From: a virus
Lineage: Duplodnaviria > Heunggongvirae > Uroviricota > Caudoviricetes
Length of the DNA stretch: 15,934 bases
Virus record (IMG/VR): IMGVR_UViG_2529292919_000020
Reading direction: 5' to 3' (one strand)
In this document: piece after piece, positions 1-13,552 of the stretch
How the letters are laid out: each line of letters begins with the position of its first letter
How positions within the stretch are numbered: the stretch's first letter is position 1
The notes under the pieces: generated by a model
What the model was told of the DNA's origin: nothing
Databases searched by the model: none
Seen by the model: the letters and a program-made list of their open reading frames with translations, nothing else
Made by a program: the position numbers and the translations under genes

Positions 1-1230
1 ATGAGCAGAGCACTTAACAAACTGAGCGATACACAGCTGAGGAAAATCAACGGCACACCCGCCCAAAAAACAGCCTTTCTTAATGACGGTGGAAACCTGA
101 GCGTCAGGCATTCAACCAGCGGCCTTTTAACCTGGTATTTCACTTACAGGGCCGGAACGGGAAGGGGGGCACCACCGGAACGCATTAAGCTGGGAAATTA
201 TCCTGATCTGAGCCTGAAATCAGCCAGGGAAAAAGCCGCCCAGTGTCGCGCATGGCTGGCTGAGGGGAAAAATCCACGTCATGAGATGAATTACACCGTA
301 CAGGAAGCGTTAAAGCCGGTAACGGTTGGCGATGCGCTCACCTACTGGCTTGAGTCGTACGCAAAGGAAAACCGTGTAGATTATGACCCACTGAAAAAGC
401 GGCTAAATAATCACGTAATACAGCACATTGGCTCTATGCCGCTGGATAAATGCGAGCTACGGCACTGGCTGGCCTGTTTTGATCGGGTGGCAAAGCAAGC
501 CCCTGTTTCCGCCGGGTTCCTGCTACAGACATGCAAACAGGCGCTTAAGTTCTGCCGGAAGCGGCGCTATGCAATCAGCAACGTTCTTGATGATATGAGT
601 GTGGCTGACGTTGGGAAAAAACCGGATATAAGCGAACGTGTCTTAAGCAATAAAGAACTGGGCGAATTATTGCAGACACTGGACAAAAAAATATTTTCCC
701 CTTACTACGTCGCACTAATCCGCCTCCTGATTGTTTTCGGATGCCGGACAGTAGAACTGAGATTATCGGAGATCGGCGAGTGGGATTTTACCGAAATGCT
801 CTGGACTGTTCCGAAGGAGCACAGCAAAACGAAGGTAGCCATATTCCGGCCCATACCGGAAGCGATACTGCCGTTCGTCACGCAGCTGGTGGAGCAGAAC
901 AGGCACACGGGCTTATTGCTGGGGGAAGTGAAACAGGAAACCAGCGTATCGCAGTACGGCAGATTGGTGCACAGGAGGCTTAAACACCCTCACTGGTCAT
1001 TGCATGACATCCGGCGCACCTTTACAACGATGCTGAACGATTTAGGCGTGGATCCTCACGTCGTGGAGCAGCTTACAGGACACCAGATGCCAGGGATGCA
1101 ACGAGTCTATAATCACTCCCGTTATCTGGATGCGAAACGCAATGCGCTGGATATGTGGACGGAGCGGTTAGGGATACTGGCGGGAGCACATGAAAACGTA
1201 ACCACGCTATCAGTAGCCAGAAGAAAATAA
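1..1230 (+). CDS. int: Tyrosine recombinase / integrase, P4-type (N-terminal arm-binding-like domain plus C-terminal catalytic domain)
   Basis: 409-aa ORF starting at ATG at position 1. The N-terminus (LSDTQLRKI...NDGGNLSVRHS...TWYFTYR...LGNYPDLSLKSAREKA) resembles the arm-DNA-binding domain of P4-like integrases. The C-terminus carries the tyrosine-recombinase signature (HDIRRTF...LTGHQ...RVYNHSRY). The ORF begins exactly at the window edge, so an upstream extension and attL cannot be assessed. Confidence 0.9.
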   Translation: MSRALNKLSDTQLRKINGTPAQKTAFLNDGGNLSVRHSTSGLLTWYFTYRAGTGRGAPPERIKLGNYPDLSLKSAREKAAQCRAWLAEGKNPRHEMNYTVQEALKPVTVGDALTYWLESYAKENRVDYDPLKKRLNNHVIQHIGSMPLDKCELRHWLACFDRVAKQAPVSAGFLLQTCKQALKFCRKRRYAISNVLDDMSVADVGKKPDISERVLSNKELGELLQTLDKKIFSPYYVALIRLLIVFGCRTVELRLSEIGEWDFTEMLWTVPKEHSKTKVAIFRPIPEAILPFVTQLVEQNRHTGLLLGEVKQETSVSQYGRLVHRRLKHPHWSLHDIRRTFTTMLNDLGVDPHVVEQLTGHQMPGMQRVYNHSRYLDAKRNALDMWTERLGILAGAHENVTTLSVARRK

Positions 1231-1605: not shown

Positions 1606-1794
1606 GTGTTAAGCACAGATCGCTTTATACGTGAAAAAGAATGTCAGCAACTTACAGGCCTGAGCCGCTCATGTCGGTATCGCCTGGAGAAGACTGGACA
1701 ATTCCCATCACGGCGTAAACTCGGCGGTCGTTCCGTTGGCTGGTCTTTATCCGAAGTTCTGGCATGGAAGGACAGCCGCGAGGCAGTTCACTAA
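1606..1794 (+). CDS. alpA: AlpA-family (Xis/Vis-like winged-helix) transcriptional regulator
   Basis: 62-aa ORF with GTG start preceded by a strong Shine-Dalgarno (AAGGGGGAA). The motif ...CQQLTGLSRSCRYRLEKTGQFPSRRKLGGRSVGWSLSEVLAW... matches the AlpA pattern (L-TGLSRST-YRL---G-FP-P-KLG-R-V-W---EV--W). Confidence 0.85.
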   Translation: MLSTDRFIREKECQQLTGLSRSCRYRLEKTGQFPSRRKLGGRSVGWSLSEVLAWKDSREAVH

Positions 1795-3421: not shown

Positions 3422-3709
3422 ATGAAAAATAAAAATTCTGGCTTTACTGCCAGCGGCCCCGCTCGGCCTGAAATCCGCCCCGGCGATATTTTCCGGGATA
3501 ACTATGGCGGCACGGTAACGATAAAAGGCGTGGCAGAACGGCGCATCACTTACCGCCGTGATGGCTACGAATATGACTGCGTGATGCCTGTTTATCAGTT
3601 CCGGCGTGATTTCACGCTGGTGGGCCATCGTAAAGCCGTAAATCAGAAACGTGCAGCAAGTCATATCCGCAAAATTCGTGAAATGCTGGTCGCAGGGGGT
3701 AAAAAATGA
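3422..3709 (+). CDS. Hypothetical basic protein (95 aa), translationally coupled to the replication initiator
   Basis: ORF-track ORF. Its stop overlaps the start of the downstream gene in an ATGA arrangement (3706..3709). Confidence 0.55.
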   Translation: MKNKNSGFTASGPARPEIRPGDIFRDNYGGTVTIKGVAERRITYRRDGYEYDCVMPVYQFRRDFTLVGHRKAVNQKRAASHIRKIREMLVAGGKK

Positions 3710-5520
3710 AACTGGCACCGAACGTAAAACAGCAGTTACGCGGCATAAAACACAAAGAAACAGAAGTCATTATTTTTGCGGGTAGTGATGCCTGGTCACA
3801 CGCAAAACAATGGCAGGAACATGACGCGCGTATGGCCGGAGATAATGAGCCTCCTGTGTGGCTTGGGGAGCAGCAGTTATCCGAACTGGATAAGCTGCAA
3901 ATTGTGCCGGAAGGCAGAAAATCCGTGCGCATATTCAGGGCCGGATATCTTGCGCCAGTAATGATAAAGGCGATTGGTCAGAAGCTGGCGGCGGCAGGCG
4001 TACAGGATGCAAATTTTTATCCTGAGGGTATGCACGGCCAGGAGGTGCAGAACTGGCGCGAATATCTGGCCCGTGAGCGCCAGAATCTTTCTGATGGTCT
4101 GGTGATTCAGCTTCCTGTTAAGAAAAAAACAGAAGACAGCGCCGCACCACTGGCGCTTAACCAGATGGGAGCAAGCCAGCGCGGCGAAGTTCTCCTGGCA
4201 CATTATGGCGGTGAACTGGCGATTCATGCCGACTCTGACACTGTTCACCATTACAACGGCGTTGTATGGGAGCCGATTCAGGATAAAGAGTTACAGCGTG
4301 CTATGGCGCAGATTTTCATTGATGCGGAGATCAGCTATTCGCAGAACGCCATTAAATCGGCGGTCGATACCATGAAGTTAAGTTTGCCTGTAATGGGGAA
4401 TACAGCCCGTAACCTGATTGGATTCAGTAACGGGGTATTTGATACCAGAACAGGTAATTTTCGGGAGCATAACAAAAACGACTGGTTGTTAATTGCCAGT
4501 GAATTACCTTTCAGCCCACCAGCAGAGGGGGAAACGCTGGCAACACATGCGCCGAATTTCTGGAAGTGGTTACGCCGCTCGGTGGCAGAGAATGACCGCA
4601 AGACGGATCGCGTGCTGGCTGCATTATTCATGGTGCTGGCGAACCGGTACGACTGGCAGTTATTCATTGAGGTAACAGGTCCAGGGGGAAGTGGTAAAAG
4701 CGTGATGGCGGAGATTTGCACCATGCTGGCGGGTAAGGCCAACACAGTATCGGCAAGCATGAAGGCGCTGGAAGATGCAAGGGAACGCGCGTTAGTGGTT
4801 GGCTTTTCGCTGATTATCATGCCGGATATGACCCGCTACGCTGGTGATGGCGCAGGAATTAAGGCCATTACAGGCGGTGACAAGGTGGCAATCGACCCGA
4901 AGCATAAAGCCCCCTACTCAACACGCATTCAGGCGGTCGTGCTGGCGGTGAACAATAACGCCATGTCATTCAGTGACCGCAGCGGGGGGATCTCACGTCG
5001 TCGGGTGATATTCAATTTTTCGGAGGTTGTACCGGAGAACGAGCGCGACCCCATGCTGGCAGAAAAAATAGAAGGAGAGCTGGCGGTTGTGATTCGCCAT
5101 CTGCTTACTCGTTTTTCTGACCAGGACGAAGCTAAACGCCTGCTGTATGAGCAGCAGAAATCAGAAGAAGCTCTGGTGATAAAACGCGAGGGCGATTCGC
5201 TGGTGGACTTCTGTGGCTATCTCATGTCGTCGGTAATGTGTGATGGTCTGTTAGTGGGTAATGCCGAAATTATTCCGTTCAGTCCGCGCAGGTATCTTTA
5301 TCACGCCTATCTGGCATATATGAGGGCACACGGATTCGGTAAACCTGTAACACTGACGCGCTTCGGTAAAGATATGCCGGGGGCAATGGCGGAATATGGC
5401 AGGGAGTATATAAAACGGAAAACGAAGCACGGTTTGCGTTCAAATGTGACACTGACAGAGGATTCAGAAGACTGGATGCCATCATGTGCATCGGTCACAA
5501 ATGACGACAGCAAAAATTAA
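3706..5520 (+). CDS. Replication initiator (pri-rep) with P4-alpha-like C-terminal SF3 helicase / origin-binding region; N-terminal ~200 aa of unassigned family
   Basis: 604-aa ORF with strong SD (CAGGGGG). Walker A GPGGSGKS, followed by a region resembling the phage/plasmid primase P4-family C-terminal (D5-like) helicase domain. Sits immediately upstream of an iteron array. Confidence 0.85.
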   Translation: MKLAPNVKQQLRGIKHKETEVIIFAGSDAWSHAKQWQEHDARMAGDNEPPVWLGEQQLSELDKLQIVPEGRKSVRIFRAGYLAPVMIKAIGQKLAAAGVQDANFYPEGMHGQEVQNWREYLARERQNLSDGLVIQLPVKKKTEDSAAPLALNQMGASQRGEVLLAHYGGELAIHADSDTVHHYNGVVWEPIQDKELQRAMAQIFIDAEISYSQNAIKSAVDTMKLSLPVMGNTARNLIGFSNGVFDTRTGNFREHNKNDWLLIASELPFSPPAEGETLATHAPNFWKWLRRSVAENDRKTDRVLAALFMVLANRYDWQLFIEVTGPGGSGKSVMAEICTMLAGKANTVSASMKALEDARERALVVGFSLIIMPDMTRYAGDGAGIKAITGGDKVAIDPKHKAPYSTRIQAVVLAVNNNAMSFSDRSGGISRRRVIFNFSEVVPENERDPMLAEKIEGELAVVIRHLLTRFSDQDEAKRLLYEQQKSEEALVIKREGDSLVDFCGYLMSSVMCDGLLVGNAEIIPFSPRRYLYHAYLAYMRAHGFGKPVTLTRFGKDMPGAMAEYGREYIKRKTKHGLRSNVTLTEDSEDWMPSCASVTNDDSKN

Positions 5521-5530
5521 ACTTATGGAA

Positions 5531-5760
5531 TAACTGTTCACCACTGTTCACCCTGTGATAAATATCTTTTATATCAGTACATTATAGGGTGAACAGTTAT
5601 TTGTGAACTGTTCACCAAACTATTCACTGTTCACCTTTTTGATTATTTATTGAGCTTTAAGGGTGAACAGTGGTGAACAGTTGGTGAATAGTTTTTGTGA
5701 AACTGTTCACCCCTTAACATTATGAATAAAAAGGGAAAATCTCAAAAGGTGAACAGGTGA
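5531..5760. repeat. Replication origin iterons: about ten copies of CTGTTCACC / GGTGAACAG in both orientations, with an adjacent AT-rich tract
   Basis: Forward copies start at 5534, 5545, 5608, 5627, 5703. Inverted copies start at 5588, 5662, 5672, 5748, plus a degenerate GGTGAATAG at 5683. Neighbouring copies are 10-11 bp apart. AT-rich AAAAATTTTATTTTATT at about 5774..5790. The core TGTTCACC is the octamer I recall as the alpha-binding iteron of P4 ori1/crr. Confidence 0.8.
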
Positions 5761-6512: not shown

Positions 6513-7043
6513 ATGACAACGCTGACCATTAACCGGAAGCCGAAAGGCATTTACGGCACGCCGCAGAAAACGACGCAGGCGGCGCAAGAGCAGGATAAAA
6601 CCACATCGGCGCATAAAGTGATACCCGGCAATCAGAACGCACAGCAGAAGCCCACAGGGGCGACACCGTGGCAGCATATGACCAAAAGGCAGCGCAAAAA
6701 CCGCCGACGCGTTAACCGCCTCACTGAGATGTGGCCTGACTTATTCAGCCATAAAGCACCGAAGCCGCTTAAGGTGGGGATATTCGACGACCTGATGCAG
6801 GATATCGCCGTCAGGGGGCTGGCATTCGGGCCGGGGGTATTACGTGCGACGCTGGCATCCTATGCGCAGTCTCCGCGCTATTACCGCGCCCTGATAGCTG
6901 GTGGCGCACGTTACGACCTGAAAGGCCAGCCATGTGGGGAAGTGACACCACAGGAACAGCAGGAGGCAGAAACACGGCTGATGGTGCTGAATGAGAAGCA
7001 CAAGCGCCAGCGCCGGGCAGCAAAGGGGGATACATGCCAGTGA
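6513..7043 (+). CDS. ProQ/FinO-domain RNA-binding protein
   Basis: 176 aa with strong SD (GGGGAAGG). ...WPDLFSHKAPKPLKVGIFDDLMQDIA...LRATLASYAQSPRYYRALIAGGARYDLKGQPCGEVTPQEQQEA matches the ProQ N-terminal / FinO fold signature (PLKIGIF-DL ... LR-AL--Y--S-RY ... R-DL-G-PCGE). Confidence 0.8.
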   Translation: MTTLTINRKPKGIYGTPQKTTQAAQEQDKTTSAHKVIPGNQNAQQKPTGATPWQHMTKRQRKNRRRVNRLTEMWPDLFSHKAPKPLKVGIFDDLMQDIAVRGLAFGPGVLRATLASYAQSPRYYRALIAGGARYDLKGQPCGEVTPQEQQEAETRLMVLNEKHKRQRRAAKGDTCQ

Positions 7044-7282
7044 CATTTGAAGAAGTTCAGCAACATAAAAAGCTTCATTGTTTTGATGATCTGGAAACCA
7101 CGACAGCAAAAAAATATCGTCGGTTGCTTTCTTCCGATGCGTTATTTTTTGTGGATCATCATGATTTTCTGCGTAGCTCACTGACCGGGGAAATTTTCGC
7201 AACCAACCGTGAGCAGGTGGAAGCGATGATCGAATATTTGTGGAAAATAAGACGCAGAATGCGGGAGCCAGTGAAACAATAA
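7034..7282 (+). CDS. Hypothetical protein (82 aa)
   Basis: ATG at 7034 with GGGGGA SD, overlapping the stop of the ProQ/FinO-like gene. Followed directly by an intrinsic terminator. Confidence 0.5.
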   Translation: MPVTFEEVQQHKKLHCFDDLETTTAKKYRRLLSSDALFFVDHHDFLRSSLTGEIFATNREQVEAMIEYLWKIRRRMREPVKQ

Positions 7283-7290
7283 AGCGATAA

Positions 7291-7319
7291 AGGCCCGGAT
7301 TTTTTCCGGGCCTTTTTTC
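7291..7319 (+). terminator. Rho-independent terminator closing the replication/accessory operon
   Basis: Stem GGCCCGGA (7292..7299) pairing with TCCGGGCC (7305..7312), followed by TTTTTT (7313..7318). Confidence 0.7.
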
Positions 7320-7336
7320 AGGTTTTGTAAATTATT

Positions 7337-7362
7337 TGTTCGTGGTTGTTCCAGGTTGTTCG
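7337..7362. promoter_or_regulatory. Three TTGTTC units phased at exactly 10 bp (starts 7337, 7347, 7357) upstream of the capsid operon: candidate activator-binding site for late/packaging gene expression
   Basis: Direct reading: tTTGTTCgtggTTGTTCcaggTTGTTCgg. An 18-nt exact match to the reverse complement of 1304..1321. Lies just after the terminator and about 195 bp upstream of the major capsid gene start. Confidence 0.5.
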
Positions 7363-7555
7363 GTGATTCTGGTTGATGTTTACATACTGATTTTTATGTA
7401 TATGTTGGCGTGTGGCACTCAGACGTGAGCCGCCACAATGCCGCCTGACCCCCTGCGCGATGCCGGGTTGATCTGCGAGATGCCGAGAGTGTCGGGCGGC
7501 GCTCCCCCCGTGTTGGTTTCACGTCCTGAATCTTAACCAATGCGAGAAAACCTTC

Positions 7556-8701
7556 ATGAAGAAATTAATCGAACTCCGCCAGCAAAAAACCGCCCTGAAA
7601 AACCAGATGCGATCCCTGCTGGAAAAAGCCGACAGTGAAAACCGCAGTCTAACCGATGACGAGGGCAAACAGTTTGATGAACTGCGTGCAAAAGCCGATT
7701 CCCTCGACACAGAAATTTCCCGACTCGAGTCTGTGGCTGATGAAGAACGTAACCAGCCTGGTGTTCCCGTCGAAGATAAAATCACCAAAGACGAGCTACG
7801 CTCTTACATTCTGACCGGGGAAACCCGCAACCTGTCCGGCAGTGTTCCGGCTGATGGTGGTTATACGGTTATCCCGGAACTGAACAGAGAAATTATGCGT
7901 CAGCTTTCTGATGAGTCGGTGATGCGTAAAATCTGTACTGTTAAAACCATTCACAGTAATGAATTTAAGCAACTGGTTTCTGCCGGGGGTGCGGTCGTGG
8001 GACACGGCGAAGAAGGTGCGGCACGTAACCAGACGGCAACCCCAAAACTGAATGAAGTCAGTATCCGCCTGTATCCGATCTACGCTTACCCGAAAACCAC
8101 TCAGGAAATTATCGATTTTTCCGAAGTCGATATTATGGGCTGGTTATCTTCTGAAATTGGCGACACTTTCGTTGATACCGAAGAAACGGATCTGGTTTCC
8201 GGTGATGGCGAGAAAAAAGCCAAAGGTTTCCTGACTTTCCCGCGCACTACGGATAATGACAAAACCCGTCCTTTCGGTACGCTCCAGACGAAAAAAGTGA
8301 CTGGCAGTCTCAGCGCCGATATGCTGATTGACCTGAAATTTACGCTGCGCAATAAGTACCGCAAAAAAGCTGTATGGGTGATGAACTCAAATACAGCCGC
8401 CTCCGCACAAAAACTGAAAAATGCCACTGGTGATTACATCTGGCGCGATCGTTTACAGGCTGGTGATCCTGATTCTCTGCTGGGGCTTCCGGTTGAATAT
8501 CTGGAATTTATGCCGGACGGTGTGATTGCAGTCGGTGACTTTAAGCGCGGTTATTTCATCGTTGACCATAAAACCGGTACGCGTACCCGTCCGGATTTCA
8601 GCGAGCCTGGATTCATTAACATCTATACCCAGAAATATCTGGGCGGTGGTGTGGTGGATTCGAACGCCATCAAGATTCTGGAAATTCAGGCTGGCAAGTA
8701 A
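7556..8701 (+). CDS. Major capsid protein, HK97 family (with N-terminal coiled-coil delta/scaffold-like domain)
   Basis: 381 aa. The N-terminal ~100 aa are highly charged and coiled-coil-like (ELRQQKTALKNQMRSLLEKAD...LRAKADSLDTEISRLES), as in HK97-type capsid delta domains. Gene context with protease and portal. Confidence 0.85.
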   Translation: MKKLIELRQQKTALKNQMRSLLEKADSENRSLTDDEGKQFDELRAKADSLDTEISRLESVADEERNQPGVPVEDKITKDELRSYILTGETRNLSGSVPADGGYTVIPELNREIMRQLSDESVMRKICTVKTIHSNEFKQLVSAGGAVVGHGEEGAARNQTATPKLNEVSIRLYPIYAYPKTTQEIIDFSEVDIMGWLSSEIGDTFVDTEETDLVSGDGEKKAKGFLTFPRTTDNDKTRPFGTLQTKKVTGSLSADMLIDLKFTLRNKYRKKAVWVMNSNTAASAQKLKNATGDYIWRDRLQAGDPDSLLGLPVEYLEFMPDGVIAVGDFKRGYFIVDHKTGTRTRPDFSEPGFINIYTQKYLGGGVVDSNAIKILEIQAGK

Positions 8702-8709
8702 TGAGCAAA

Positions 8710-8730
8710 GGGGGCTTCGGCCTCCTTTTT
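8710..8730 (+). terminator. Intrinsic terminator/attenuator immediately after the major capsid gene (UUCG tetraloop hairpin plus T-run)
   Basis: GGGGGC (8710..8715), TTCG loop, GCCTCC (8720..8725, one G-U pair), TTTTT (8726..8730). Located between the capsid stop (8701) and the protease start (8751). Confidence 0.6.
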
Positions 8731-8750
8731 CAGCTTTATGGAGTACACCG

Positions 8751-9311
8751 ATGAAAAACACCGATTTTGAAATCCGTACATCTGAACTGACCGCCAGCGA
8801 TAAAAAACTGGTGGGTTATGCCGTTCGCTGGAACAGCCTTTCAGAAATTATCTGGGACGAGTTTCGCGAACAGTTCACGCCGGGGGCTTTTGCTGACTAT
8901 CTGGCGGCGGGTAATGATGTGCGCTGTCTGTATGAGCATGACTATACCCGACTGCTGGGGCGTACCAAATCCGGCTCACTGGTACTGACTGAGGATAACA
9001 CCGGGCTACGTTTTGAACTGACACCGCCAAATACCCAGCTTGGAAAAGATGTGCTTACGCTGGTGGAACGTGGCGATATTACAGGAATGAGCTTTGGCTT
9101 TCGCGCATTATGCGAGGAGTGGAATATCGCGCAAAAACCGTATCTGCGTACTGTAACCGCCGCAGAACTCCGTGAAATCACGATAACATCGATGCCTGCT
9201 TATCCCGAATCCGGCGTGGAGATTGCCCACCGTTCGTTGTTTGCACAGTACCCTGAATTACGCCCGGCAGGAAATAATCGTCATCGCTGGGCTGAACTGG
9301 CGGGGTTGTGA
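8751..9311 (+). CDS. Prohead maturation protease, HK97 family (S78/U35-like)
   Basis: 186 aa from ATG 8751 with GGAG SD. The track ORF 8526..9311 extends upstream into the capsid gene in another frame. Motifs typical of HK97 proteases: LVGYAVRWN...LYEHDYTRLLGRT...GLRFELTPPNT..GKDVL..VERGDITGMSFGF. Confidence 0.85.
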   Translation: MKNTDFEIRTSELTASDKKLVGYAVRWNSLSEIIWDEFREQFTPGAFADYLAAGNDVRCLYEHDYTRLLGRTKSGSLVLTEDNTGLRFELTPPNTQLGKDVLTLVERGDITGMSFGFRALCEEWNIAQKPYLRTVTAAELREITITSMPAYPESGVEIAHRSLFAQYPELRPAGNNRHRWAELAGL

Positions 9312-9312
9312 T

Positions 9313-10527
9313 ATGTGGTGGCCTTTTAGTCGTAAAAAAAGCGATCTGCGTAACCTGTCCATTGATGATTTTCTGGCGTTGTCTGGTGTACCAAATACCG
9401 GATCCGGAGAATATGTTTCTGCCGGGACGGCTGAATCATTGCCTGCTGTGATGAACGCGGTTTCTGTCATCGCTGAGGCGGTGGCCACGATGCCGTGTTA
9501 CCTGTATCTGGTACGCAATGATAAGGGCAGAGAGGCGCGGGAATGGCTGGACAGTCACCCGGTAGATATTCTGCTGAATGAGCAGCCTAATTCGTGCCTG
9601 ACACCTTACCAGTTTAAACGCACAATGATGCGTCACTGCCTGCTGAACGGTAACGCCTATGCGGTTATTGAGTGGGGGCGGGACGGGCAGCCAAAATCAC
9701 TTCATCCTTATGCGCCGGGGTGTGTTGTACCGGAACGCACAGGCACACACAAATACCGCTATACCATCACCGAACCCTGTACAGGAACGGTGCGCACGTA
9801 TTTACAGGAAGAAGTTCTGCATCTCCGCTATGCCTCGGATGATGGCTTTCTGGGGCGTTCCCCCGTCACGATTTGCCGTGAGGCGCTGGGGCTTGGCCTT
9901 GCTCAACAGCGTCACGGAGCCAGCATTATGAAAGATGGCATGATGGCGGCAGGGATTATCACGTCAGGTGAATGGCTGGACGGCGTGAAAGGTAAACAGG
10001 CATTAGACGCACTGGAACGCTACAAGGGGGCGAAAAATGCCGGAAAAACGCCAATCCTTGAAGGGGGCATGGATTACAGGCAGCTGGGGATGAGTAACCA
10101 GGATGCGGAATGGCTGGCCTCCCGTCGCTTCTCCATTGAAGACATCGCCAGGATGTTCAACGTGTCGCCGATTTTTCTTCAGGAATACAGCAACAGCACC
10201 TACAGCAATTTCAGTGAGGCGAGCCGCGCATTTCTGACCATGACAATGCGCCCGTGGCTGGCGAACTTCGAACAGCAAATCAAGGCCGCTTTGCTGGTGA
10301 CTTCTCCCGTACCAGGTACCCGTTATCTGGTTGAGTTTGATTCAGCCGATTTACTGCGCGCCACACCCACCGAACGTTATGCCACGTATGAGAAAGGGAT
10401 TAAGAGCGGGATCATGAATCCGAACGAAGCTCGCGAACGCGAGGGGATGCCGCCGCGTGAAGGTGGTGATGAGTTCAGCCAGGCATGGAAACAGACTGTG
10501 GAAATTAAAGGGAGAAAAGATGAGTGA
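9313..10527 (+). CDS. Portal protein, HK97 family
   Basis: 404 aa from ATG 9313, 2 nt after the protease stop. The track ORF starts at 9223 inside the protease gene. Size and order are consistent with a portal; overall similarity to HK97-type portals by eye. Confidence 0.8.
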   Translation: MWWPFSRKKSDLRNLSIDDFLALSGVPNTGSGEYVSAGTAESLPAVMNAVSVIAEAVATMPCYLYLVRNDKGREAREWLDSHPVDILLNEQPNSCLTPYQFKRTMMRHCLLNGNAYAVIEWGRDGQPKSLHPYAPGCVVPERTGTHKYRYTITEPCTGTVRTYLQEEVLHLRYASDDGFLGRSPVTICREALGLGLAQQRHGASIMKDGMMAAGIITSGEWLDGVKGKQALDALERYKGAKNAGKTPILEGGMDYRQLGMSNQDAEWLASRRFSIEDIARMFNVSPIFLQEYSNSTYSNFSEASRAFLTMTMRPWLANFEQQIKAALLVTSPVPGTRYLVEFDSADLLRATPTERYATYEKGIKSGIMNPNEAREREGMPPREGGDEFSQAWKQTVEIKGRKDE

Positions 10528-10822
10528 AGCCAGAATTACACCTGATGAAGTCAGGGCACATCTTCGACTTGATGATGATTTATCCGGTGAAGGCGAACTT
10601 CTGAAAATGTATACCGATGCGGCGCTGGAAGCCTGCCAGAAGCATATCGGGAAACGTTTTGAAGACGGGCTGGAATTTACCCCGGCAATGCGTGTTGGTT
10701 GCCTGATGTACATCGCTTTCCTGTACGAGAACAGGGAAGCAGTTTCACCAGTGGAGCAGTCTGAACTGCCTATGGCTATTTCTGCGCTCTGGTCGGTTTA
10801 TCGTGATGTGGGGGTGTACTGA
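10520..10822 (+). CDS. Head-tail connector (gp6-like) protein
   Basis: 100 aa from ATG 10520 with GGGAG SD, overlapping the portal stop. N-terminal ...EVRAHLRLDDDLSGEGELLKMYTDAALEACQ... resembles the gp6-like head-tail connector family signature. Confidence 0.7.
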   Translation: MSEARITPDEVRAHLRLDDDLSGEGELLKMYTDAALEACQKHIGKRFEDGLEFTPAMRVGCLMYIAFLYENREAVSPVEQSELPMAISALWSVYRDVGVY

Positions 10823-11262
10823 TGCCGTGGCAACCATTAAGGCGATGCACTGAGCCGGGCTGTAATAAGCGCGTGAAGTCCGGCAAGTGTGAAGAGCACA
10901 GGCGGGCTGTATGGCGTGCAGAGGATGCCAGACGGGGACACCGCCGCGCGCGCGGGTATTCCCGACAGTGGGACAAATACCGCGCCCTGTACCTGAGCAA
11001 AAACCCGTTATGCGTGCATTGTCTGGTTAAGGGGATTTATACGCCAGCTCTTGTGGTGGATCACATCATTCCCATCAATGGCGGCGGTGATGTTCTCTTC
11101 TGGCCTGAGTGGAACCACCAGGCATTGTGCCAGACGTGCCACAACCGTAAGACGACACGGGAAGATCCCGCCACGAAAGCGAACCGTAAGGCGGGCATGT
11201 ATCGCGAGCAGGAAGAACGGGCGGCACACCGTAACGACTGGATGTATGGCGATGATGACTGA
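10822..11262 (+). CDS. HNH endonuclease (terminase-associated)
   Basis: 146 aa. The start overlaps the connector stop (TGATG). Cys-rich N-terminus (C..C......C..H) and HNH core VVDHIIPINGGGD...NHQALCQTCHNRKT. Confidence 0.85.
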   Translation: MPWQPLRRCTEPGCNKRVKSGKCEEHRRAVWRAEDARRGHRRARGYSRQWDKYRALYLSKNPLCVHCLVKGIYTPALVVDHIIPINGGGDVLFWPEWNHQALCQTCHNRKTTREDPATKANRKAGMYREQEERAAHRNDWMYGDDD

Positions 11263-11550
11263 ACAGGAGCAAAACAGGCTGATACGTGGGTTGATAAGGC
11301 AGCGTGACACATGGAAGACACAGGAGACAGGGCACAAAGCCAACAGGACAGGGCGCACAAAACGCACCACAGCGAAGTGATTAACCGACCGTGACCGCGA
11401 GGTCATGGAATGTTTTCGCAATCGCTGGTGAGGCCGTCAGAGGGGGTGGGGGTGGTTTTCAGGACGAAACCGCCCCTGCCGGACACCGACCGCCTCCTCA
11501 AATTTTTGTGCACGGGAATTTTTTTGAAAATAATTGGGCGAAAAAAGAAC

Positions 11551-11907
11551 ATGGCAAGACCACCAAAAGCCCCCGCTTACCTGGATGAAATCGCGGTCAG
11601 GCAGTGGAAGGAAAAATCGCGCCAGCTTTCCGGACGGGAAGACCTTACCCCCGCCGACTGGAGCAATCTGGAGCTGTATTGTGTTAACTACTCCATATAC
11701 CGCAAAGCCGTCGAAGACCTTGCCACGCGCGGGTTCAGCATTGTTAACAGTCAGGGCAGCGAGAGCAGAAACCCCGCCCTGAGCGCAAAGGCTGACGCTG
11801 AAAGAATAATGATCAAAATGGCTTCTTTGCTGGGTTTTGACCCGGTAAGTCGCCGCAGAAATCCACCGGAAACAGAGGAAGAGGACGAGCTTGACCGCCT
11901 GGCATGA
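11551..11907 (+). CDS. terS: Terminase small subunit (P27-like family)
   Basis: 118 aa from ATG 11551 (MARPPKAPAYLDEIAVRQWKE...LELYCVNYSIYRKAVEDL...NPALSAKADAERIMIKMASLLGFDPVSRRR), a pattern typical of P27-family small terminases. The track start at 11410 adds a low-complexity leader lying in the putative packaging-site region. Confidence 0.75.
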   Translation: MARPPKAPAYLDEIAVRQWKEKSRQLSGREDLTPADWSNLELYCVNYSIYRKAVEDLATRGFSIVNSQGSESRNPALSAKADAERIMIKMASLLGFDPVSRRRNPPETEEEDELDRLA

Positions 11908-13552
11908 GTACGCAGAAGGCGTAAAAAACGGCAAAATTACGGCCTGTAAACGACTGAAACAGGCCGTTAAACGGTATTTTTCTGACCTTGAAAACCCCCT
12001 TTACACGTTCGATCCGGAGGTCGTGGAGCGGTTTATTGCCTTTTCCAGGGTGTGTCCGCACGTAAAAGGCGCAATGCGCGGTAGCCCCATTGAGCTGGAG
12101 CCGTGGCAGCAGTTCGCCTTTGCGTGCATCCTGGGCTTTAAGGTTAAGGCCACCGGACGGCGCAAATACACCAGCGCATTCATTGAAGTGCCGCGAAAAA
12201 ATGCCAAATCCACGGTCGCCGCTATCCTGGCTAACTGGTTTCTGGTTATGGAAAACGGGCAGCAGGATATTTACACCGCCGTCGTGAGTCGTGATCAGGC
12301 GCGGATCGTGTTTGATGATGCGCGTCAGATGTGCCTTTTATCCCGACCGTTACGAAAGCGGGTAAATATTCAGGCACACAAGGTGATACACCCGAAAACC
12401 AACAGCCTGTTAAAGCCACTGGCAGCAAAAGCGGCAACCATTGAAGGTACAAACCCGAGTCTTGCCATTGTGGATGAATATCACCTGCACCCTGACAACG
12501 GGGTTTATTCCGCGCTTGAACTGGGAATGGGGGCGCGTCCGGAGGGGCTGTTATTTGCCATCACCACATCGGGGAGCAACGTTGTTTCAGCCTGTAAACA
12601 ACACTACGACTATTGCTGCCAGATACTGGATGGTGAAGAGGTGAACGAATCCATGTTCGTGCTGATTTACGAGCTGGATGATGAAAGCGAGGTTGACGAT
12701 CCGGCGATGTGGATAAAGGCGAATCCCAATATCGATGTTTCCGTCGATCGTGAAAAACTGGCCTCAACCATCCAGAAAGCGCGGGGTATTCCGTCGCAGT
12801 GGGTGGAAATGCTCACCAAGCGATTCAATATCTGGTGTCAGGGGGCCACGCCGTGGATGGGTAACGGTGCATGGGCGGAGTGCGCCGGAACGTTCGCGGA
12901 GGCGGATTTATACGGTCAGGAGTGCTACGCGGGGCTGGACTTATCATCAACCAGCGATATTTCCAGCGTGTGCTATGCCTTTCCGGTCGGTAAAAAGATT
13001 ATGCTGGTTTCCCGTCACTATCTGCCGGAATTTCAGCTACAGAACCCCGCCAATAAAAACCGCGCCATCTATCGCCAGTGGGTAAAGGCGGGCTGGATAC
13101 GCACAACACCGGGTGACTGCATTGATTATGACCGTATCCGTGATGACATCATGGCGGATGCAGAGAATTTCAATATCAGGCTGGTGGGCTTCGATACATG
13201 GAACGCCACGCACCTGAGGACGCAGCTACAGGGGGCAGGATTTGAGGTGGAGCCGTTCCCGCAAACATACCTTCGTTTCAGTCCGGCGGCGAAATCGTTC
13301 GAAGTTTTTGTTAACCGGAAGGTGATTGTGCATCGTGGTGATCCGGTGCTGGCCTGGTCAATGAGTAATGTTGTGATGCAGAGTGACGCGAACGCCAATA
13401 TCAAGCCGAACAAGAAAAAATCATCCAACAAGATAGACCCGAGCGTTGCGGCGCTGATGGCGTTTGGCACATTCCAGGCAGAGCATGAAGATTTTGCCTT
13501 TGATATAAGCGACAGCCACAAAGAGCGGCTTGCGGCGTTTGATGGTGTATAA
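11891..13552 (+). CDS. terL: Terminase large subunit (ATPase/nuclease)
   Basis: 553 aa. The start is probably TTG at 11891, overlapping the terS 3' end by 17 nt; the next in-frame ATG is about 60 codons downstream and would remove the conserved N-terminus (WHEYAEGVKNGKITACKRLKQAVKRY). Walker A-like VPRKNAKST. Length and position typical of terL. Confidence 0.9.
   Translation: MTAWHEYAEGVKNGKITACKRLKQAVKRYFSDLENPLYTFDPEVVERFIAFSRVCPHVKGAMRGSPIELEPWQQFAFACILGFKVKATGRRKYTSAFIEVPRKNAKSTVAAILANWFLVMENGQQDIYTAVVSRDQARIVFDDARQMCLLSRPLRKRVNIQAHKVIHPKTNSLLKPLAAKAATIEGTNPSLAIVDEYHLHPDNGVYSALELGMGARPEGLLFAITTSGSNVVSACKQHYDYCCQILDGEEVNESMFVLIYELDDESEVDDPAMWIKANPNIDVSVDREKLASTIQKARGIPSQWVEMLTKRFNIWCQGATPWMGNGAWAECAGTFAEADLYGQECYAGLDLSSTSDISSVCYAFPVGKKIMLVSRHYLPEFQLQNPANKNRAIYRQWVKAGWIRTTPGDCIDYDRIRDDIMADAENFNIRLVGFDTWNATHLRTQLQGAGFEVEPFPQTYLRFSPAAKSFEVFVNRKVIVHRGDPVLAWSMSNVVMQSDANANIKPNKKKSSNKIDPSVAALMAFGTFQAEHEDFAFDISDSHKERLAAFDGV

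Follow-up and report, generated by a model that had tools for sequence, protein, structure and literature searches.

A conserved GC-rich hairpin follows the capsid gene at the front of the packaging operon in an Escherichia coli capsid-forming phage satellite

The DNA analysed here (IMG/VR record IMGVR_UViG_2529292919_000020) is a stretch of 15,934 nt (15.9 kb), referred to as the window. Its 5' edge is the start of a tyrosine integrase gene, and its 3' edge lies within phoQ on the minus strand. The gene series opens with int, AlpA, several small ORFs, the primase gene, a block of iterons, genes for SSB and a ProQ/FinO-family protein and an 82-aa ORF, and it continues with capsid, S78 protease, portal, gp6-like connector, HNH, terS, terL and one small ORF (Table 1). 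All genes of the island point in the same direction, with the exception of one small gene on the minus strand. The island is inserted between roxA and phoQ, and a 99.4% identical copy is found at roxA/phoQ of E. coli AST262. The stretch 7000-11000 was matched in 534 of 5426 complete E. coli genomes, in every case on the chromosome. The RefSeq annotation of the 99.4% identical copy is free of tail and lysis genes from roxA to phoQ, and the island's small ORFs gave no hit to a tail or holin family in Pfam or PHROG. The combination of int, AlpA, a D5-type primase and an iteron origin with a complete set of head and packaging genes, without tail or lysis genes, identifies the source element as an E. 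coli capsid-forming phage-inducible chromosomal island (cf-PICI), a known type of satellite. A terminal integrase, a regulator of the AlpA/MerR type and a primase-replicase are all present, as are the element's own capsid, protease, portal, HNH, terS and terL genes in the published proteobacterial order, and the ~13.8 kb that separate int from the last ORF of the island fall within the cf-PICI size range of ~10-18 kb. Both a head-tail adaptor and a head-tail connector gene belong to the cf-PICI set; here portal and HNH are ~300 nt apart, enough for a single gp6-like/Ad1 gene, as against ~650 nt and room for two in many relatives. The SatelliteFinder cfPICI model accepts elements with 10 of 11 core components as 'Type B' (PMC10085698). 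Helper-phage-dependent induction, small T=4 capsids and transfer by helper tails have been established experimentally only for EcCIEDL933 and a few others (10.1101/2022.09.08.507074).

Table 1. Coordinates of genes and RNA or DNA features in the window.
Feature	Position	Strand	Evidence or remark
Integrase (tyrosine)	1-1230		Integrase domains
AlpA	1606-1794		PF05930, 66 bits
D5-type primase	3706-5520		D5_N/DUF5906/Pox_D5
Iteron block, ~ten copies of ACTGTTCACC	5530-5760		Directly 3' of primase
ProQ/FinO-family gene	6513-7043
Intrinsic-terminator-like hairpin, GGCCCGGA-TTTTT-TCCGGGCC + T6	7292-7318	+	Strict scan: -16.9 kcal/mol, tail score 4.4
Sigma-70-like promoter candidate, TTTACA-16-TATGTT	7379-7406	+	Promoter scan
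Structured 5' leader of capsid gene, ~145 nt	7412-7555	+	P1, P2, linker, 3' box
Major capsid gene, HK97 fold; opens the operon	7556-8701	+	Phage_capsid PF05065, 206 bits
Hairpin, 5' arm GGGGGC	8710-8715	+
Hairpin, loop TTCG	8716-8719	+
Hairpin, 3' arm GCCTCC	8720-8725	+
Hairpin, TTTTT	8726-8730	+
Shine-Dalgarno GGAG of protease gene	8740-8743	+	7 nt 5' of ATG, outside hairpin
Prohead serine protease gene (S78)	8751-9311	+	Peptidase_S78 PF04586, 153 bits; 9311 is the protease stop
Portal gene	9313-10527	+	Phage_portal PF04860, 307 bits
Head-tail connector/adaptor gene (gp6-like, Ad1)	10520-10822	+	PF05135; phrog_40 'head-tail adaptor Ad1'
HNH endonuclease gene	10822-11262	+	PF01844
Small terminase gene (P27 family)	11551-11907	+	Terminase_4 PF05119; RefSeq annotation of 99.4% identical copy
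Large terminase gene, ATPase + nuclease	11891-13552	+	PF03354 and PF20441

Pfam hits and coordinates bear out the order that the initial annotation had given for the head and packaging genes, namely capsid, protease, portal, connector, HNH, terS and terL. Within the head block, the 49-nt spacer between capsid and protease is the one non-coding gap of any size; protease and portal are 1 nt apart, and the portal-connector and connector-HNH junctions overlap. Most related capsid-protease spacers keep the GGAG(T) block that here provides the Shine-Dalgarno sequence of the protease gene. In a search of PDB chains, the capsid protein aligned with 9gyi ('Major head protein') at E = 3.7e-184 and ~70% identity as judged by eye. 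This entry contains four chains of the capsid sequence, fitting the published T=4 asymmetric unit of EcCIEDL933, and it probably represents the EcCIEDL933 capsid. The T=4 capsid itself is established for EcCIEDL933 (Alqurainy et al., 10.1101/2022.09.08.507074). By geometry, a T=4 shell with one portal vertex holds 235 capsid subunits versus 12 portal subunits.

The order of the head genes had been described as inverted relative to HK97-like phages, and this is the case for all seven phage relatives compared. SfI, phiP27, Pseudomonas phage D14E, HK97, ST64B, YeP1 and Klebsiella phage ST101-KPC2phi6.3 share the arrangement (HNH-)terS-terL-portal-protease-capsid-connectors. The true contrast with the phages is that capsid and portal have exchanged positions around the protease, the strand being unchanged. 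The portal gene lies downstream of the capsid gene in all 136 fetched loci with at least 50% capsid identity, and upstream of it in all 13 distant fetched loci (<50% capsid identity). For proteobacterial cf-PICIs the order 'capsid-protease-portal-head connectors' followed by 'hnh-terS-terL' has been reported (Alqurainy et al., 10.1101/2022.09.08.507074). The gene order is thus already published as a conserved layout and is nothing new: it is typical for a known satellite group, and no phage group with this order was found. That the packaging genes come last, as initially stated, holds for the integrated orientation but not for the packaged linear DNA, which by analogy with phiP27 would have terS-terL first. 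In the phiP27 record cos is annotated between HNH and terS, and one satellite record that was deposited as a phage starts 23 nt 5' of terS. The view that the module is not simply a recent phage capture agrees with the capsid comparison. Full-length identity to the best true-phage capsids is 37%, and a partial match gives ~42%, values which mark the head module as old and distinct. Within the phage records of GenBank, capsids with more than 45% identity occur only in a 3.8-kb fragment, in two 15-16.5-kb records with satellite layout and at the end of one 106-kb record.

The spacer between capsid and protease contains the hairpin that had been proposed as a partial terminator, and its GGGGGC-UUCG-GCCUCC fold with five U at 8710-8730 can be read directly from the DNA. 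The sequence across it is TAA-TGAGCAAA-GGGGGC-TTCG-GCCTCC-TTTTT-CAGC. The hairpin begins 9 nt after the TAA and has a stem of 6 bp, made up of five G-C pairs and one G.U pair (8712/8723), which is closed by a C(UUCG)G tetraloop. The energy of the 6-bp core is -9.9 kcal/mol. AAA at 8707-8709 is able to lengthen the stem, and the 34-nt hairpin context with this A/U extension folds with -16.7 kcal/mol, a value that none of 200 shuffles reached. Hence, the sequence features of an intrinsic terminator are all found here: a GC-rich stem, a loop of 3-8 nt, an immediate U-rich tract and a location 3' of a stop codon. The U-tail score of 3.9 belongs to the upper third among the relatives. A strict scan of the plus strand of the whole window, in which A-U and G-U pairs were trimmed from the stem end before the U tail was scored, returned two terminator-like motifs (7292-7318 and 8710-8730), while shuffles predict 0.25 per strand. 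A generic terminator scan returned 31 sites, with neither 7292 nor 8710 among them; it was blind to both motifs, probably because it extended the stems into A/T tracts and thereby lost the U tail.

Loci for comparison came from IMG/VR scans; a scan of genome contigs with a single capsid protein gave only seven loci. The 139 related loci contain 67 distinct capsid-protease spacers, of which 66 were compared. The remaining one (L152) was set apart, as it is 581 nt long and carries an inserted gene, and it too has kept the hairpin. A GC-rich hairpin that starts 1-13 nt past the capsid stop codon is present in 61 of the 66 distinct spacers. In 57 of these 61, no more than 7 of 100 dinucleotide-shuffled versions of the spacer attain the stem energy, and three further ones have bulged stems with RNAfold energies of -21 to -24 kcal/mol. 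The five remaining spacers of the 66, 11-24 nt long, lack a hairpin altogether; some lineages can thus do without it. The stems fall into four mutually unrelated designs. The type GGGGC/GCCCC occurs with the loops UUCG, UACG, UGUG, GAAA or a 5-nt loop, and a second type is GGAGGC/GCCTCC (as RNA GGAGGC/GCCUCC). Besides these, there are stems of 11-15 bp with the arms GGGCGTTCCTG/CAGGAGCGCTC (as RNA GGGCGUUCCUG/CAGGAGCGCUC) and a Pasteurella type, GGGGGCTA/TAGCCC (as RNA GGGGGCUA/UAGCCC). The fourth pair from the loop is G.U in the source hairpin, A-U in a sister allele and G-C in most others. Less conserved than the stem is the U tract behind it, which ranges among the relatives from six U down to two or three. 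The source hairpin and its E. coli alleles carry an unbroken run of 5-6 U directly after the stem. Two RNAalifold runs each gave a single two-sided change, so that covariation inside any one stem class is weak; this is because MAFFT misplaced gaps and stems of the same class hardly vary. Selection on the hairpin is therefore indicated by unrelated stems recurring at one position and by the shuffle controls, not by covariation.

Two further ideas about the hairpin were given up. A mosaic junction of capsid alleles inside the hairpin was withdrawn, since a sliding identity plot places the divergent segment in the capsid ORF, at ~7714-8638. ProQ-family proteins bind terminator hairpins, and a link between the island's ProQ/FinO protein and the hairpin was considered; this gene is present in only 25 of 117 loci, however, while the hairpin is nearly universal.

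Hairpins at this position are not restricted to satellites. All seven related proteobacterial HK97-like phages have a GC-rich hairpin directly 3' of the capsid stop codon. In the HK97 record (NC_002167) it lies at 5192-5213 after the major head gene gp5, reads GGGGGCGGG-GAAA-CCCGCCC-TTTT and is annotated as 'terminator, putative'. The hairpin of phage ST101-KPC2phi6.3, GGGGC-TTCG-GCCCC, has a stem found in many satellites, and those of SfI, ST64B, phiP27 and D14E have no U tract. Clostridial relatives with 25-33% capsid identity showed no comparable hairpin after the capsid gene. The source hairpin resembles that of HK97 in its GC-rich stem, its stable tetraloop, its short U run and its onset less than 10 nt past the capsid stop, and as a stable GC hairpin within ~25 nt of the stop codon it belongs to the HK97-type capsid 3' hairpins. 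Its presence in all seven phages and in nearly all satellite spacers implies that HK97-like ancestors passed on the capsid gene with its 3' hairpin as a single unit. The hairpin is thus an inherited HK97-type feature, neither an invention of the satellites nor tied to the rearrangement. What differs is the neighbourhood: in HK97-like phages the hairpin lies where the head block ends, between the capsid gene and the head-tail adaptor genes, whereas in cf-PICIs it lies where the operon starts, between the capsid gene and those for protease and portal. When the ancestral order portal-protease-capsid was rearranged, the capsid gene and its hairpin stayed together as a conserved unit, which shifted from the last place in the head block to the first place in the operon.

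A second hairpin, at 7292-7318, precedes the packaging operon and folds with -21.9 kcal/mol (z -5.0). It is stronger than the one at 8710-8730 and would end the replication and accessory block 5' of the packaging operon. A conserved TTTGTAAATTATTTGT motif lies between this putative terminator and the promoter-like site. BLAST alignments to divergent relatives start at 7379-7391, where a conserved TTTTTCATGTATAT-type block is found, and the site at 7379-7406 is predicted to act as promoter and to set the transcription start, at ~7412. The leader that follows opens with hairpin P1 (7412-7436), whose sequence GUGGCACUCAGACGUGAGCCGCCAC is invariant. Hairpin P2 (7440-7500) is long, and its sequence differs wholly between lineages while its architecture is kept (37 distinct versions, median z -3.7). 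On its 3' side there is a pyrimidine-rich linker, and then an invariant box TGGTTTCACGTC at 7514-7525 (UGGUUUCACGUC). One base pair of P1 has undergone a compensatory change from GC to AU in four sequences. In addition, AGACGUGA of P1 is complementary to UCACGUCU at the 3' box (here UCACGUCC, seven pairs), and in most lineages GGUUUC pairs with GAAACC beside the start codon. The leader is present at 98 of 137 loci, in 46 distinct sequences, and absent from relatives with AT-rich upstream regions; it matched no Rfam family (E<=1) and nothing in true phage records. One tentative reading, which we consider possible but well short of probable, is that the cf-PICI capsid gene forms a self-contained RNA-regulated cassette with a dedicated promoter, an undescribed structured leader that includes a covarying long hairpin, and a closing 3' terminator hairpin. 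The leader might then sense a signal of the helper or the island, or modify the polymerase, and leader and 3' hairpin together might fix the timing and the amount of capsid; the invariant box lies near the ribosome-binding region and is complementary to part of the first hairpin. If true, this reading would also account for the move of the capsid gene to the operon front. The conserved structured leader before the capsid gene may merit a study of its own.

Most likely the hairpin acts as a leaky terminator and/or as a stabiliser of the 3' end, so that capsid mRNA would exceed that of the downstream genes. More specifically, we regard it as rather probable that it is a leaky Rho-independent terminator which leaves a hairpin-protected 3' end and thereby enriches capsid mRNA. 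The capsid gene, preceded by a putative promoter region of its own and by the structured leader, opens the packaging operon. Part of the polymerases would stop at the hairpin and leave a stable capsid mRNA with a protected 3' end, and the remaining ones would read through into protease, portal, connector, HNH, terS and terL. The promoter-proximal place of the capsid gene, combined with attenuation behind it, would yield an excess of capsid protein matching the 235 copies that face 12 portal subunits. A partial terminator that provides such an excess, as proposed initially, is plausible and consistent with the conservation of the hairpin. Termination, its efficiency and its effect on stoichiometry are what we infer from the observed anatomy, conservation, homology and synteny. 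The promoter scan of the plus strand found no site between 7406 and 9598. In the prototype, transfer needed every packaging gene 3' of the capsid gene, with the sole exception of the small ORF 1792, for which transfer was lowered but not lost (10.1101/2022.09.08.507074). Since these required downstream genes have no promoter-like site nearby, termination at the hairpin would have to be partial. T7 is a documented case of phage expression tuned by leaky terminators, and such terminators turn up often in phage transcriptomes (PMC9163698).

Conservation is much stronger in the stem than in the U tract, and since several phage hairpins have no U tract, termination is possibly not the conserved activity. 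A mechanism without any termination would agree with this: the hairpin would block 3'-to-5' exonucleases after cleavage of the polycistronic RNA, and the capsid segment would outlive the rest, as in retroregulation. The four phage hairpins devoid of any U tract (SfI, ST64B, phiP27 and D14E) fit such protection, and the invariant hairpin at the predicted 5' end of the leader fits a capsid message protected at both ends. However, the uninterrupted U run of the source hairpin and its E. coli alleles is a canonical terminator tail, and we judge protection without termination to be rather unlikely. Stabilisation of the mRNA and leaky termination are inseparable from sequence alone, and they are compatible with each other. 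That the hairpin has no function at all, being a neutral relic from the phage module it descends from, or a palindrome that arose by chance, would explain why five lineages lost it and retained the module, and why compensatory changes within a stem class are few. Yet the retention of unrelated stems at the same position in 61 of 66 spacers and seven of seven phages is hard to understand without selection, and this makes a functionless hairpin highly improbable.

The two terminator-like hairpins flank a unit of promoter, leader and capsid gene, and they could also serve together as an insulator that silences the head genes in the uninduced state. Antitermination, via the structured leader RNA (put-like) or via a factor of the helper or the island, would override them on induction, and the hairpin would then not set stoichiometry. 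In lambdoid HK97-like phages, Q antitermination lets transcription pass such hairpins, and the conserved two-hairpin leader begins at the predicted 5' end of the transcript. On the other hand, the leader has no Rfam match to known antitermination RNAs, and relatives with AT-rich sequence keep the hairpin without the leader. No Q-like gene is annotated in the RefSeq copy of the island, and the search for lambda Q/qut, HK022 put and P. aeruginosa AlpA systems detected no recognisable factor or RNA homologue in it. AlpA of P. aeruginosa is an antiterminator whose complexes have been described (PMC9371919), but no similarity of the island AlpA to it was detected. PDB 8c3t ('AlpA family phage regulatory protein') was the only match of the island AlpA at E<=1, among chains that may not include the P. 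aeruginosa AlpA complexes, and the idea that the island AlpA is an antiterminator thus found no support. We therefore consider an insulator overridden by antitermination quite improbable, and leaky termination, with or without stabilisation of the 3' end, remains the preferred function of the hairpin.

With the gene order published and the hairpin being a further instance of a feature of HK97-like phages, the novelty of these observations is low. The word 'terminator' does not occur in either of the cf-PICI papers searched, which mention neither hairpin nor leader and do not address the timing of capsid production relative to helper tails. A literature search on terminators after capsid genes found nothing specific. 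A capsid unit that stands first in the operon would offer a simple account of how a 14-kb element provides ~235 capsid subunits per 12 portal subunits.

In its overall design the source island corresponds to EcCIEDL933 and other proteobacterial cf-PICIs, with the same genes in the same order (int, alpA, primase, capsid to terL) and without tail or lysis genes. It differs from them in its roxA/phoQ site, its accessory SSB and ProQ/FinO genes and its one connector-type gene between portal and HNH. The shared features and the match to PDB 9gyi suggest the link to EcCIEDL933. For the hairpin itself, the closest functional parallel lies outside the satellites. In T7 the incomplete terminator T-phi is placed just after capsid gene 10 and enriches capsid mRNA over that of the downstream genes. 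T-phi is unrelated in sequence to the cf-PICI hairpin, and its target is T7 RNA polymerase. The likeness is one of functional analogy only, namely that of a leaky terminator, putative in the case of the cf-PICI, right after the major capsid gene.

The packaging operon of this island, a capsid-forming phage-inducible chromosomal island (cf-PICI) of E. coli, looks like a transcription unit of its own. We base this on the order of elements upstream of it, where a strong terminator is followed by a conserved motif and a promoter-like sequence (see table). Between this boundary and the capsid gene a structured 5' leader is conserved (7412-7555), which was found in 98 of 137 related loci. Two of its elements are invariant, and its long hairpin is kept as an architecture across lineages even though the sequences are unrelated. 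Searches with the leader matched no family in Rfam and no true phage among the phage records.

Features of the island in window coordinates
Feature	Position	Strand or orientation	Remark
Two terminator-like hairpins	1943-1963, 2068-2088	minus	inside the plus-strand ORF 1847-2614
About ten ACTGTTCACC iterons	5520-5760	both	directly 3' of the primase gene
Strong terminator GGCCCGGA-TTTTT-TCCGGGCC + T6	within 7292-7406		end of the replication/accessory block
Conserved motif TTTGTAAATTATTTGT	within 7292-7406		3' of the strong terminator
Promoter-like TTTACA-16-TATGTT	within 7292-7406		3' of the strong terminator
Leader hairpin GTGGCACTCAGACGTGAGCCGCCAC	within 7412-7555		invariant
Leader long hairpin	within 7412-7555		
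Leader box TGGTTTCACGTC	within 7412-7555		invariant
HNH-terS stretch	11263-11550		non-coding and small-ORF sequence
Hairpin CCGTGACC-GCGA-GGTCATGG	11389-11408		within the HNH-terS stretch

The capsid gene itself occurs as two alleles in modules that are near-identical elsewhere, as the comparison of the window with the related locus L039 and about 20 similar loci reveals. Within the body of the ORF (7714-8638) identity is only 45-83% in 60-nt windows, while the leader, the first ~50 codons and the last ~20 codons are conserved around it, and the protease and portal genes are 96% and 98% identical, respectively. The capsid body looks as if it had been replaced by recombination. Apart from PDB 9gyi, no solved capsid comes closer to the protein encoded at 7556-8701 than the capsids of the gene transfer agent from Rhodobacter capsulatus (6tb9 and 6tba, with E about 1e-47).

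The terminator-like hairpin 3' of the capsid gene (8710-8730 in the window) has no counterpart in five distinct capsid-protease spacers of relatives (L109, L110, L145, L127 and L144), each spacer measuring only 11-24 nt; some lineages of cf-PICIs can thus do without it. A further related locus, L152, carries a 177-aa ORF of the homing-endonuclease type (about 5201-5731 of that locus) with an HNH_3 and a weak AP2 match. This ORF is inserted 3' of the hairpin and 5' of the protease gene, and the capsid gene keeps its hairpin despite the insertion.

Upstream of the operon, the iteron block is probably the replication origin of the island; matches to Rfam microRNAs stem from the same region and were dismissed as spurious. 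The two minus-strand hairpins lie downstream of a small YlcI/YnfO-like gene on that strand (2386-2565), and the plus-strand ORF that contains them is a truncated pseudogene according to RefSeq. Just 5' of the packaging operon, a ProQ/FinO-family RNA-binding protein is encoded (6513-7043) by an accessory gene that 25 of 117 related loci carry. Members of the family are known to bind hairpins of terminators; a link between the island protein and the capsid 3' hairpin was considered and found to be without support.

Several GenBank records labeled as phages seem either to represent cf-PICIs or to include one (LR881103.1, OR544139.1, OR850982.1 and PQ569648.1). At 16.5 kb and 15.3 kb, respectively, vB_KppS-Ant and Pasteurella Pmp8 show the satellite layout, and the 106-kb record of Klebsiella phage P12620-1 holds capsid and protease homologs and a portal-sized ORF at its end, in satellite order.

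Between portal and HNH (10527-10822) the window encodes a single connector/adaptor gene in about 300 nt, whereas this interval spans about 650 nt in many relatives. The 2025 cf-PICI paper describes the region as variable and as deciding which phage tail is used. By analogy with the HK97-like phage phiP27, in which cos is annotated between HNH and terS, the cos site of the island should lie within the HNH-terS stretch.
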